Shown: piece by piece, positions 22,201-25,200 of the stretch
Layout: the number at the start of each line of letters is the position of its first letter
Position numbering within the stretch: position 1 is the first letter of the stretch
NCBI RefSeq assembly: GCF_058153355.1
Contig: NZ_CM177019.1
DNA length: 64,000 bases
Direction: 5' to 3' (one strand)
Program-made: the position numbers

Positions 22201-25200
22201 GCCATTCGCAATTTGATGGTTCGTAATTACCATTGTTATCAATTCTTCCCAATGTAGTTCCGTCTGGTCTTTTTCCCATATCAGCGAAAAATAATTTAAA
22301 GTCCAGCCACCGTTCACAAACAGTTATTCCTCTTCCTCCATAGTGTTTGTATTTACTATTTCTTTCATTGAAGCATCTTGTTAACATTGAAGACCATGAC
22401 TTGTATGTTGGCGTTCCATACATGCCATGTTTGTTTTTTCTTGCTTTTGTTGTAGATGAGCGTGAGCAACCACAACTTCTTGTGTGCCCTGAACGGAGGT
22501 TGCCAGGCTGTTTAACACAAACTACTCCGCAGTCACACACACAGTTTACCAACCTTTGAGTACCACGCATTCCTGCATCACCAATAACAACTAAATTGCC
22601 AAATCTCTCGCCGGATACCTCAAGACGTCTCATTTTTTTCAAACCCATAGTAAGAGCATATTATTTTATCTACTTCGTACAAATCATTATCAATAAACTG
22701 ACTATCAAACATCCCAACCGGACTTTTACAACAATCACTCCCGTTTGTCTGGGTGGAAAATGAGTATTTTCCGTTCTGTACGTGAGTTCTTAACACGATA
22801 GTGAAATAACCTTCAGGAACAAGTGTCGAATCGACTAGTTTTCCGACGGTTTTCATTCGTGTATAGCCAAAATCATCAGTTTGCGTGTGTGCCAGAATAT
22901 AAACTCTCCGAGTGTCTGCCCCTTCACCAGCAGCCCTGAACACATCCCATGCGTTTTTCCCTATCGAGGTAAATTTGTCATATCCTCTCTCATTGCATTT
23001 ACCCATTAGTTCGTTAACCATCACAGCCTGATAATCATCAATAACTACAATTTCATGCGGAGCATTAATTAGTGCCCTTACAATATTTTTAGTATTATCT
23101 GTTCTGTATATGTTCCCGTTATTGTTTTCCTTGCTTATTTTAACCCAATCACTTGATGGGAATGGTAGCGGTTTGTTTATGCACTGTATGATTAATGTTT
23201 TTTCTGGTGGTAAGTTTCTTAAACTGGTTGATTTTCCGGTGCCAGACTCACCGAGTATTAATGTCGCAGTTCCCATAATTTGCCTCAGAATGGTAATTCG
23301 GATGGGGAGGAAAGAAACTCGCGCTCATTCATGCGCTCTCTTTGTGCCTGCCATAAACAAAGTTGTTTCTTTGATTTATCTCCCGCTTTACGCCAGTAAC
23401 GAGCCTCAGCAATGTGATATTCTCTTTTTAATCGACTTAACTCTGGAGTTTTCGCCAGCTCTACCGGAATCATTTTGACCTCCATTTTCTGTAGGCTTCG
23501 ACGGCCTCACGAAACATCTTTTCATCGCCAATAAAAGTGGCGATAGTGAATTTAGTCTGGATAGACATAAGTGTTTTATCCATTTTTGGGAACTCCTGGC
23601 TGATTAAGTACGTCGATGAGTCGTTTCCATCCGTCACGTAATTTACGGGTGATTCGTTCAAGTAAAGATTCGGAAGGGCAGCCAGCAACAGGCCACCCTG
23701 CAATGGCATATTGCATGGTGTGCTCCTTATTTACGCTTTAAATTGCTCCGTGTATTCACTCGTTGGAATGAATACACAGTGCAGTGTTTATTCTGTTGCT
23801 TGTGCCAAAAATAAAGACCAACTATGCGGCCTCGGAAGGAAGTCCAATCATCTTATTCAAATCTTCTACCCGTAAAGCAGGAAGTGCTGTACTTGCTTTA
23901 TCTGCTTCTTTTGGTAGCAATTCTTTGCTTTCAGGCCAAACTTCAATAAGTCGCTTAACTGTTGTGACTGAGTTCAAAGCAGCCCATACATTTGATTCGA
24001 TATCCTTTTTCCTGGCTTCAAGTTTTTGTTGCAATGCGCAGATTTCATCAAACCTTTTTGTTATTTCGTGTTCTGCGCTAAACATGCATTTATCTCTGGT
24101 CGGAGTAGGGAGCAATATATCTTCGCCGTTGCCGTCTTTCCCATGTGAATACCATCCAACCCTTCTGCCAGATACAGTCAGATAAATTGAAGTAGAACGA
24201 ACATCGCATGAGTAAAATGAACATCCCATCTTTTCAAGTTCTTCACTTATAGCTACCAACTTGGATGATAACTGATCCACTTCCTCAGTTTTCTTCTTCC
24301 CGCCAAACGCAACAACTCTGGCGTCAAGTGCAAGCTGGTTCTTTCGCTTTGTTACTTCTTCAAGTTCAGTGAACACCCCGGACTTAATTAAAGCGTTGCG
24401 TGCTATTACTTCTTTTATTCTCGTTGTTAAGCGGATTGATGACATATTAATTCCTCTCAAATAAGTGGTTTGCTACCTAATTTCATTTTCTGGCGACCAA
24501 CACAAGTCATCTTGCTGTCAGCTGTTTGGATTTCCTGTAGCCTGCCGCGTAAAGAGCTACATTTGGAAGACAAGTTGAGCCTTCATATTTTCTGGTCAAC
24601 GTTGTCAGTGTTATCACTTCTGCTCTCATTGCTGGTTTGCGCTTGCATTGCAAGACCACTCGCGAAGGGGTTGGCCTGTGTAGTTTGTCGGAGCTGATCG
24701 CCTCCTGACTTTGCAGGTTTGCACGACGAGCTCTACGGCGAGAAGCTGCGGTGCCTTTAAATTCTGTTTTTCTGGACATAGATTCCTCCCGAATAAACTC
24801 TGGTGATGCAATCCCGAAGCTACTCCTGAGACGGTTGCTTCTGGATTTCATCCCACAGCTTATGTGGTTGGGTGAGCTGGCTTTTCAGCCACGTAGTCGA
24901 GTGTTCGACGTTGTTTAAAGAGCATGCCAGTCTGTTCCGTTTGGCTTCCAGCGTCCTGCTGATGGCGATAATAATGAACCAATAGTTCGACATTATCAAG
25001 AACTATTGGTACGAAATTTTGTGATTTATTAACTCTACGAAATATGATTTTGATATATAAGGAAATTTATTTTTGTAAAGGTTGAGGATGAAGGTAAGCG
25101 TCTTATCAGGACCGTCTGGCAAATTCCCGATGCTTTGGACAAAGTATCCACCACTAAATTAATAGTGGGTGATAAAAATGTCAGATATACAAAAAAATGC

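Follow-up and report, generated by a model that had tools for sequence, protein, structure and literature searches.

Positions 24780-25094 of the window, the 64,000-nt stretch of DNA that was analysed, very probably form the early-left control region of a lambdoid prophage, in which a CI-controlled left promoter and operator (pL/OL) and a nutL site work in two stages. All of its elements are of a known kind, and both parts are well matched in well-studied Shiga-toxin phages. When the region was re-read, every sequence feature named in the initial annotation was present where that annotation had placed it, and its interpretation is supported as essentially right, with the refinements given below. 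The anatomy of the sequence, its identity to characterised homologues and the covariation of its RNA stems are properties of the locus itself; where transcription starts, whether CI binds, whether N antiterminates and what a spacer hairpin does here are inferred, the first three points being carried over from 933W, lambda and H-19B.

Features of the region and its surroundings

The elements discussed in this study, with the evidence for each in brackets, are as follows.

24507..24779, minus strand: N antitermination gene, 90 aa, ATG preceded by GGGAGG (Pfam PF25694; identity to VT2-Sakai)
24878..24891, minus strand: nutL boxB, UGGCU-GAAA-AGCCA, 5-bp stem with a GNRA tetraloop (same in VT2-Sakai; stem covariation)
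24896..24909, minus strand: nutL spacer hairpin, GUCGA-ACAC-UCGAC, then UACG (fold; comparison of N-linked sites)
24911..24924, minus strand: nutL boxA, UGCUCUUUA followed by AACAA (composite pattern; boxA 9-mer)
24951..24963, minus strand: putative pL transcript start, AUCAGCAGGACGC, +1 near 24963 (13-mer shared with lambda pL, P22, HK97, 933W and Sakai)
24971..24976, minus strand: pL -10 hexamer, CATTAT (promoter scan; same in 933W)
24975..24989, minus strand CGAACTATTGGTTCA: OL1, 15-bp 933W-type operator in the pL spacer (933W identity; fits the rules of PMC3317979)
24994..24999, minus strand: pL -35 hexamer, TTGATA (promoter scan)
24999..25013, minus strand CGTACCAATAGTTCT: OL2, 15-bp 933W-type operator abutting the -35 (identical to 933W)
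25014..25085, minus strand: AT-rich tract upstream of pL, without operator, containing ctacgaaa (~92% identical to 933W)
25086..25093 and 29001-29008: left and right copies of an 8-bp target-site duplication, GGATGAAG (reconstructed empty site matches 933W)
25094..29000, plus strand: IS66-family element with terminal GTAAGCG repeats (repeats and target duplication)
25213-26638: IS4 nested in the IS66-family element (12-bp duplication CTCTCCGGGAAG)
30873..31580, minus strand: cI repressor gene, 235 aa (233/235 identical to 933W CI; Peptidase_S24 and HTH domains)
31573..31643: OR3 (31573-31587), OR2 (31605-31619) and OR1 (31629-31643), with pR and pRM (identical to operators annotated in AF125520; pattern matches)
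31894..31939, plus strand: nutR, boxA CGCUCUUUG, hairpin GGAC-AUUC-GUCC, UACG, boxB UCGCU-GAAA-AGCGA (near-identical to VT2-Sakai nutR)

The left promoter, its operators and the IS66-family insertion

The promoter scan gave pL as TTGATA-17-CATTAT, with 9/12 matches to the consensus; the 17-nt spacing is within the 16-18 nt expected of a sigma-70 promoter, and the direction is toward N. Over the region as a whole, 3 promoter-like matches were found against 1.6 expected, so that the scan alone is weak, and the pL call is supported because the operators overlap the promoter and the transcript start is conserved. The 13-mer AUCAGCAGGACGC begins at the position past the -10 that corresponds to that of lambda pL and is also present in P22, HK97, 933W and Sakai, and we place the probable +1 from this 13-mer. 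Together, pL and its two interleaved operators occupy 24951-25013 on the minus strand. The initial annotation had put OL/pL immediately left of the IS66 insertion, as is confirmed by the 933W-identical operators, the promoter scan and the start of the element to the right of the control region at 25094. Other candidates were set aside: an alternative pL upstream (TTTACA...ATATCA near 25078) failed the -10 criteria and was absent from the promoter scan output, and a rightward TTGTGA-18-TATGAT at 25019-25048 was taken as chance. The only candidate for a lambda-like IHF site upstream of pL, at 25043-25055, has one mismatch, and matches of this quality were no more frequent than expected by chance (54 versus 56).

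The operator core GWACYNNNRGTWC has exactly four matches in 64 kb versus 0.56 expected (0/100 shuffles reached four), two at OL (OL1 and OL2) and two in the cI-cro intergenic region. No third OL operator was found even when one mismatch was allowed; the relaxed search added only OR2 in the immunity region, and one-mismatch matches outside it were at chance level over the 64 kb. OL thus has two operators and OR has three, the same numbers as in 933W. In both half-sites of OL1 and OL2, positions 2-5 follow the 15-bp symmetric rule (G, A/T, A, C), and the OL2 half-site CGTACC has the 3'/6' non-consensus bases attributed to OL2 in PMC3317979. The five-site set also matches the published 933W statistics (PMC3317979), with T at position 6 in 7/10 half-sites and C in 3/10, positions 4 and 5 invariant, and G at position 2 save in one OR2 half-site. 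By their identity with the 933W sequence and these summary statistics, the two sites here would be the published OL1 and OL2. As for the protein, CI residues 1-80, including the 933W DNA-recognition residues S41 and K46, are identical to those of 933W CI.

The motifs gtacgaaa (25009-25016) and ctacgaaa (25035-25042) had been described as recurring in the cI-cro region. This holds for gtacgaaa, which is the outer half-site of OL2 and OR1, but not for ctacgaaa, which is absent from OR. The latter is probably not an operator: its position 5, which is invariant in the 933W half-site, is G, its partner half-site is missing, the operator search gave no match there even with one mismatch, and it is changed to CGCAG in the related phage Stx2_EH0505.

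The 11-bp inverted repeat noticed initially at 24978-25010 is real, with 11-nt arms at 24978-24988 and 25000-25010 that are 100% complementary across an 11-nt gap; by a rough estimate, ~0.005 perfect repeats of this type would occur by chance in 330 bp. It is not one element, however, but the near-identical OL1 and OL2 in opposite orientation with the -35 between them. That the repeat is instead a single long palindromic protein site, or a hairpin or attenuator in the N leader RNA, is very unlikely, even though its 11/11 pairing across that gap would, as RNA, fold into a strong stem with a U-containing tract after it. Each arm supplies the core of its own 15-bp site, both half-sites of which obey the 933W operator rules, the -35 lies in the gap with the -10 downstream, and the reported binding sites of the 933W repressor are 15 bp long, with two of the five natural ones in OL (PMC3317979). 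Moreover, the repeat is upstream of the conserved start at 24963 and would therefore not be transcribed from pL; nor was it called as a terminator by the terminator scan. A different objection would accept the operator pair, promoter and nut sites as correctly identified but regard them as relics of a prophage made defective by IS66/IS4 or other damage, so that pL and nutL no longer drive a lytic programme. The IS66-family element with its nested IS4 does lie 72 bp upstream of OL2, the context upstream of pL past approximately -122 is replaced, and there are more IS copies in the window. We nevertheless consider this unlikely, since the insertion is intergenic, between the cI-operon terminator and OL, with a clean 8-bp duplication, N, cI and cro have intact frames with 99-100% identity to functional-phage versions, and no mutation is seen in the operators, the promoter hexamers or either nut site.

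On the reading of the region as an operator-controlled pL, the IS66/IS4 insertion interrupts no control element and the switch is spared, and the IS66-family insertion adds 3.9 kb to the OL-OR distance. An intact IS66-family copy is located at 56029-58498, and further copies of both IS elements occur in the window. With several IS copies, the prophage could be defective elsewhere.

N and the nut sites

The N product matches Pfam PF25694 (N_peptide) with 111 bits over residues 1-90 and is 100% identical to VT2-Sakai N over 90 aa. Note that many GenBank records give 114 aa; the 90-aa form is better supported, and its start aligns with that of 933W/HK97 N (MTRRTQFKG). The arginine-rich motif SRRRARRA is at residues 13-20. 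The gene had been called a P22-type N, which is correct for the last 24 residues only (79% identical to P22 gp24), the protein as a whole being of the VT2-Sakai type; the pL leader and the boxA context are P22-like. A PDB sequence search with N returned no relatives and no solved structure.

The nutL site spans 24924-24878 on the minus strand, downstream of pL and upstream of N. The boxA-like string of the initial annotation (tgctctttaaacaa, 24924-24911) and its boxB-like hairpin tggct-gaaa-agcca (24891-24878) were both recovered, but the hairpin in the spacer between them, although a hallmark of this nut class, had been overlooked. A terminator scan had called 24896-24909 a plus-strand terminator, which is this spacer hairpin on the wrong strand. 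The boxA 9-mer UGCUCUUUA is the rrn boxA of PMC2724277. The initial proposal hinged on a matching nutR downstream of cro, and one begins 8 nt past the cro stop (31894-31939) with the same layout of boxA, hairpin, UACG and GAAA-loop boxB. Both boxAs, UGCUCUUUA in nutL and CGCUCUUUG in nutR, satisfy (C/U)GCUCUU(U)A, and the two boxBs (UGGCU/AGCCA versus UCGCU/AGCGA) differ by one compensatory pair, G-C to C-G. In the 64 kb, nutL and nutR were the only two matches to the composite boxA...boxB pattern, and shuffles gave 0.

We then scanned viral contigs and compared 30 unique sites followed by an N ORF with 37 chance sites as a control, using a scripted per-site test instead of a column-wise covariation count because neither the stems nor the loops of the spacer hairpins have a constant length. 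In boxB, the bases at the two unconstrained positions of the stem were complementary in 30/30 N-linked sites, with five pair combinations. A spacer hairpin abutting CUACG was likewise present in 30/30, with at least 12 different stems, versus 3/37 chance sites. A boxA was found at 0/37 chance sites; among the N-linked relatives, GCUCU[UC] within 50 nt was not found in 13/30. The boxB loop type tracked the arginine-rich motif of N, with GAAA or GCAA (the latter in POCJ13) accompanying ...RRR[AE]xR[AS]xxQ, and GACAA accompanying the 933W, HK97 and P22 motifs.

Given that both nutL hairpins have a 5-bp stem and a 4-nt loop downstream of boxA, one might take GUCGA-ACAC-UCGAC as the functional N-binding hairpin and the GAAA hairpin as incidental. 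We give this almost no credence: the first hairpin differs wholly in stem and loop between nutL and nutR and has at least 12 unrelated stems and variable loops in relatives, whereas in the second the GAAA/GCAA loop, the U-A closing pair and the UACG spacing are kept in every N-linked site and track the N motif type.

In the minimum-energy fold of isolated nutL, boxA pairs with the 3' half of boxB, enclosing the spacer hairpin, and the fold z-scores of the isolated nut RNAs are modest (-1.6 to -1.9). Rfam covariance models (E up to 1) gave no match in 24780-25094 or at nutR; the Rfam matches, all elsewhere, were to the cIII thermoregulator, isrK and C4.

In a lysogen, a 933W-type CI dimer on OL1, in the promoter spacer, and on OL2, next to the -35, would shut off pL. 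Upon induction, the sigma-70 promoter (TTGATA-17-CATTAT, start near 24963) would fire leftward, and its transcript would carry nutL ~40-85 nt from the 5' end. The boxA UGCUCUUUA would serve as the NusB/NusE site, and the boxB hairpin, with its 5-bp stem and GAAA loop, would be bound by the arginine-rich N-terminus of N, encoded 98 nt downstream. By keeping the spacer folded, the hairpin between boxA and boxB probably prevents these two from pairing with each other. RNA polymerase modified by N and Nus factors would then read through left-operon terminators, and nutR would have the same role in the right operon.

Mosaicism and the N/nut specificity class

The locus is a mosaic, in which N/nut modules of the Sakai type flank a 933W immunity cassette. 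OL1, OL2, the -35, the -10 and their spacing are base-for-base identical to 933W, as are OR1-3, and 24951-25095 is 92.4% identical overall. In 933W, however, the nutL/N that follows OL is of the H-19B type, with a GACAA-loop boxB, whereas here OL is followed by a Sakai-type nutL/N and has the IS insertion upstream. Conversely, 24456-24965 is 95.5% identical to VT2-Sakai (Sp5) and the boxBs of nutL and nutR are identical to those of that phage, but its immunity region (operators, cI and cro) is different; in its nutL, boxA begins with G (U here) and the spacer hairpin loop is CUC (ACAC here). The homology switches from 933W-like to Sakai-like at 24951-24965. The 933W OL/pL was found joined to three N/nut modules, namely the H-19B, P22 and Sakai types; all three combinations are joined at the conserved CAUCAGCAGGACGC, where the transcript starts, and the resident N is invariably matched by its nutL and nutR. 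No identical mosaic across the OL-nutL joint was found in the phage collection, and 47 E. coli genomes cover the joint at no more than 95.3% identity.

In lambda the elements follow one another in the same order, with operators/promoter first, the transcript beginning at AUCAGCAGGACGC, and then boxA, boxB and N; the arginine-rich motif of N is lambda-like here (AQTRRRERRAEKQAQ versus AASRRRARRANLQSQ). Lambda differs in that its three OL operators are 17 bp long and unrelated in sequence, the spacer hairpin is absent, the boxB loop has 5 nt (GAAGA or GAAAA), and Trp18 of its N is replaced by Glu in the N here. P22 has a similar pL leader (CAUCAGCAGGACGCUGG.AGCCAAACGGAA) and boxA context, and its gp24 resembles the C-terminal 24 residues of N, but the arginine-rich motif and middle of its gene 24 protein are unrelated, and its nutL has boxB GCGCU-GACAA-AGCGC and no spacer hairpin.

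The nut sites of H-19B/933W resemble those here in having a spacer hairpin, UACG and then boxB, with alternative boxA-boxB pairing possible, and the GGAC-AUUC-GUCC hairpin of 933W nutR is identical to that of nutR here. In contrast, their boxB loop is the 5-nt, P22-like GACAA and their N motif is RSRRRERLKAKA, versus the 4-nt GAAA and SRRRARRANLQ here. With the H-19B-type spacer dyad but without the GACAA loop and the H-19B motif, the nut sites here form a sister specificity class. For H-19B nut, Neely and Friedman (2000) reportedly described a spacer between boxA and boxB that has dyad symmetry, together with alternative structures of the NUT RNA, and deletion of the spacer dyad is said to have had little effect. 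H-19B antitermination has been reported to be independent of NusB/S10 and boxA.

It is possible, if rather doubtful, that Sakai-type N/nut constitutes a distinct, biochemically unstudied specificity class, in which a 4-nt GNRA boxB (GAAA/GCAA) is read by a lambda-like motif without a Trp18 equivalent. A literature search of incomplete coverage found no papers describing such a class. In lambda, the fifth boxB loop base is said, after Legault et al. in 1998, to be extruded and implicated in NusA engagement. If the proposal is true, a class that lacks that fifth base, and in many cases a canonical boxA as well, might need different host factors for its antitermination complex.

These findings leave current understanding unchanged. 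Their main value is for annotation, as the coordinates of pL, OL1, OL2, nutL and nutR are fixed for this prophage, and lambdoid module exchange is cleanly illustrated by the locus. Given that 933W-type immunity controls Shiga-toxin phage induction, the presence of 933W immunity here predicts the cross-immunity and induction behaviour of the prophage.

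Layout of the early-left region and the N gene

The early-left region of the prophage, read on the minus strand from 25100 to 24780 and on into N, is arranged as listed below, with the adjacent insertion elements at the end.

Features of the early-left region
from 25100, minus: AT-rich stretch, the first feature
25000-25012 and 24976-24988, minus: pair of oppositely oriented, almost identical 13-nt cores (OL2 and OL1), containing the arms 25000-25010 and 24978-24988
24999-24994, minus: pL -35 hexamer TTGATA (promoter scan)
24976-24971, minus: pL -10 hexamer CATTAT, 17-nt spacer from the -35
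between the operator cores and boxA, minus: string CATCAGCAGGACGC
24924-24911, minus: nutL boxA string TGCTCTTTAAACAA
24909-24896, minus: spacer hairpin GTCGA-ACAC-TCGAC, then TACG
24891-24878, minus: nutL boxB hairpin TGGCT-GAAA-AGCCA
24779 to 24507, minus: N antiterminator gene, 90 residues (Pfam PF25694); GGGAGG precedes its ATG, which lies 98 nt past the boxB hairpin
25094 (GTAAGCG...) to 29000: IS66-family element, with an 8-bp duplication GGATGAAG at 25086-25093 and 29001-29008
25213-26638: IS4 nested within the IS66-family element, with a 12-bp duplication CTCTCCGGGAAG

The boxA-like string, the boxB hairpin and the inverted repeat of 11-bp arms (complementarity 100%) were thus found where the initial annotation had placed them. 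It had also called N P22-type, which holds only for the last 24 residues, which resemble P22 gp24; the protein is 100% identical to N of VT2-Sakai (Sakai). In a profile search, N matched PF25694 with 111 bits over all 90 residues. GenBank records such as that of VT2-Sakai give N as 114 aa, with a start ATG corresponding to 24851. We favour the 90-aa reading from 24779 because GGGAGG, a Shine-Dalgarno, precedes that ATG and because alignments to the Pfam profile and to 933W and HK97 N agree with it. Further down the pL operon, 23671-23729 (minus) matches the lambda cIII thermoregulator RNA over its full length (Rfam RF01804, 88.5 bits).

Operators, pL and mosaic origin

The 933W repressor recognizes symmetric 15-bp sites, the five natural ones being OR1-3 and OL1-2 (PMC3317979). 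According to that study, every half-site carries an invariant A and C at positions 4 and 5, and all but one, in OR2, have G at position 2; at position 6, seven have T and three have C. From the 933W operator sequence, whose OR1 is annotated as CGTACTGAAAGTACG in the GenBank record, we derived the search core GWACYNNNRGTWC and scanned it over the 64-kb window, obtaining 4 matches against 0.56 expected, namely the two OL cores, OR3 and OR1. When one mismatch was permitted, OR2 was the sole addition within the immunity region, other matches being at chance level. The five window sites matched the published position counts exactly, and the distal OL half-site CGTACC has, at 3' and 6', the non-consensus bases ascribed to OL2 of 933W (PMC3317979). 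OL1 occupies the pL spacer and OL2 adjoins the -35; both sites and both hexamers are identical in 933W, and CI matches 933W CI at 233/235 residues, its DNA-binding domain unchanged. As for the motifs said to recur between cI and cro, gtacgaaa forms the outer half-site in both OL2 and OR1, but ctacgaaa (25035-25042) is probably not an operator because it breaks invariant position 5, lacks a partner half-site and carries a mutation in the phage Stx2_EH0505.

Identity switches between 933W and Sakai along the locus: 95.5% to VT2-Sakai over N and nutL (24456-24965), 92.4% to the 933W region left of the cI operon over 24951-25095, 96.5% to 933W over 30471-32282 (L0084, cI, OR, cro), and 95.6% to Sakai from 31893 onward (nutR, cII). 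The locus is therefore a mosaic, with a 933W immunity cassette flanked by Sakai-type N/nut modules. On the left, the pieces join at the 13-mer ATCAGCAGGACGC, which is also found at the equivalent place in lambda (directly following the pL -10), P22, HK97, 933W and Sakai; an identical joint in Stx2_EH0505 couples 933W OL/pL to a P22-like nutL. Among phages, 933W-type OL/pL is coupled to three different N/nut modules (compared at L131, Stx2_EH0505, 520-860, and L001, 933W, 1870-2270), always at conserved CATCAGCAGGACGC, the putative pL transcript start. The exact combination of the window was not found in the phage collection and is present in 47 complete E. coli genomes (identity up to 95.3%). 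Over the chromosomal flank at 1-20000 (gyrA, nrdAB, yfaL and neighbours), identity to the best-matching complete E. coli genomes reaches only ~94.4%, and the host may belong to a non-coli Escherichia lineage.

OL/pL lies directly left of the IS66-family element, as the initial annotation had proposed. The element sits between the cI-operon terminator (about 29110-29140) and OL2, 72 bp from the latter, and disrupts no gene or control element. The rebuilt empty site agrees with 933W. An intact copy at 56029-58498 is 99.8% identical, and a second IS4 copy at 14585-16011 is 100% identical. Just downstream of the terminator, 29019-29149 is kept in 933W (77.5% identity) and VT2-Sakai (81.7%) although the immunity regions of both differ. 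In the ant/roi vicinity, 37327-37528 (plus) matches isrK (70.6 bits) and C4 antisense RNA (75.9 bits), with a C4 a1/b1 target at 45.3 bits, slightly under the 46.7-bit gathering threshold.

The nut sites and their relatives

A composite boxA-boxB pattern matched the window only twice, at nutL and at a site 8 nt past the cro stop, the nutR partner sought on the right arm. Both have the order boxA, short hairpin, UACG and GAAA-loop boxB; their spacer hairpins are unrelated in sequence, that of nutR (GGAC-AUUC-GUCC) being identical to the one in 933W nutR. The nutL boxA UGCUCUUUA equals the rrn boxA (PMC2724277), and that of nutR is CGCUCUUUG. Between the boxB stems one pair is changed, G-C to C-G. 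In minimum-energy folds of either isolated site, boxA pairs with the boxB 3' half around the spacer hairpin, recalling the alternative NUT structures that Neely and Friedman reportedly described in H-19B in 2000.

Viral contigs were scanned with CTACGNNGCTGNAAAGC, leaving two stem pairs free, which gave 114 unique sites. Wherever an N reading frame followed (30 sites), the bases at the two free pairs were complementary, in five different combinations, and a hairpin adjoined CUACG (30/30); among the non-complementary chance sites, the hairpin occurred in 3/37 and boxA in 0/37. Divergent pairs of sites, separated by 1.2-3 kb, occur on many contigs, the arrangement expected of nutL plus nutR. In 13 of the 30 N-linked nutL sites with a GAAA loop (including L012, L038, L049, L056, L072, L085, L094, L096, L119 and L129), no GCUCU[UC] boxA lies within 50 nt upstream, although spacer hairpin and boxB are kept, which recalls the reported boxA-independence of H-19B.

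Because POCJ13, whose N is 85.6% identical to that of the window, has a GCAA loop, the boxB loop of this class is assigned to the GNRA tetraloops. Loop type follows the arginine-rich motif of N: GAAA/GCAA loops pair with ...RRR[AE]xR[AS]xxQ (window, Sakai, POCJ13, NM-3) and GACAA loops with the motifs of 933W, HK97 and P22 N. We found no describing paper for the GNRA class within the searchable literature, and a structure search returned no solved structure of its N; this combination with a lambda-like, Trp-less N motif seems uncharacterised.

Proposed control of early-left transcription

All elements are of well-known kinds and most are identical in sequence to those of published phages, and the interpretation in the initial annotation is supported with minor corrections. 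The analysis itself shows the sequence anatomy, the covariation and the identity with homologues already characterised; from these we infer the pL start, CI binding and antitermination. In the lysogen, CI dimers at OL1 and OL2 would block pL; upon CI cleavage, pL would fire from a start at ~24963. In nascent nutL, boxB would recruit N and boxA would recruit NusB/NusE, and the polymerase would then become termination-resistant, with nutR playing the same role on the right arm.
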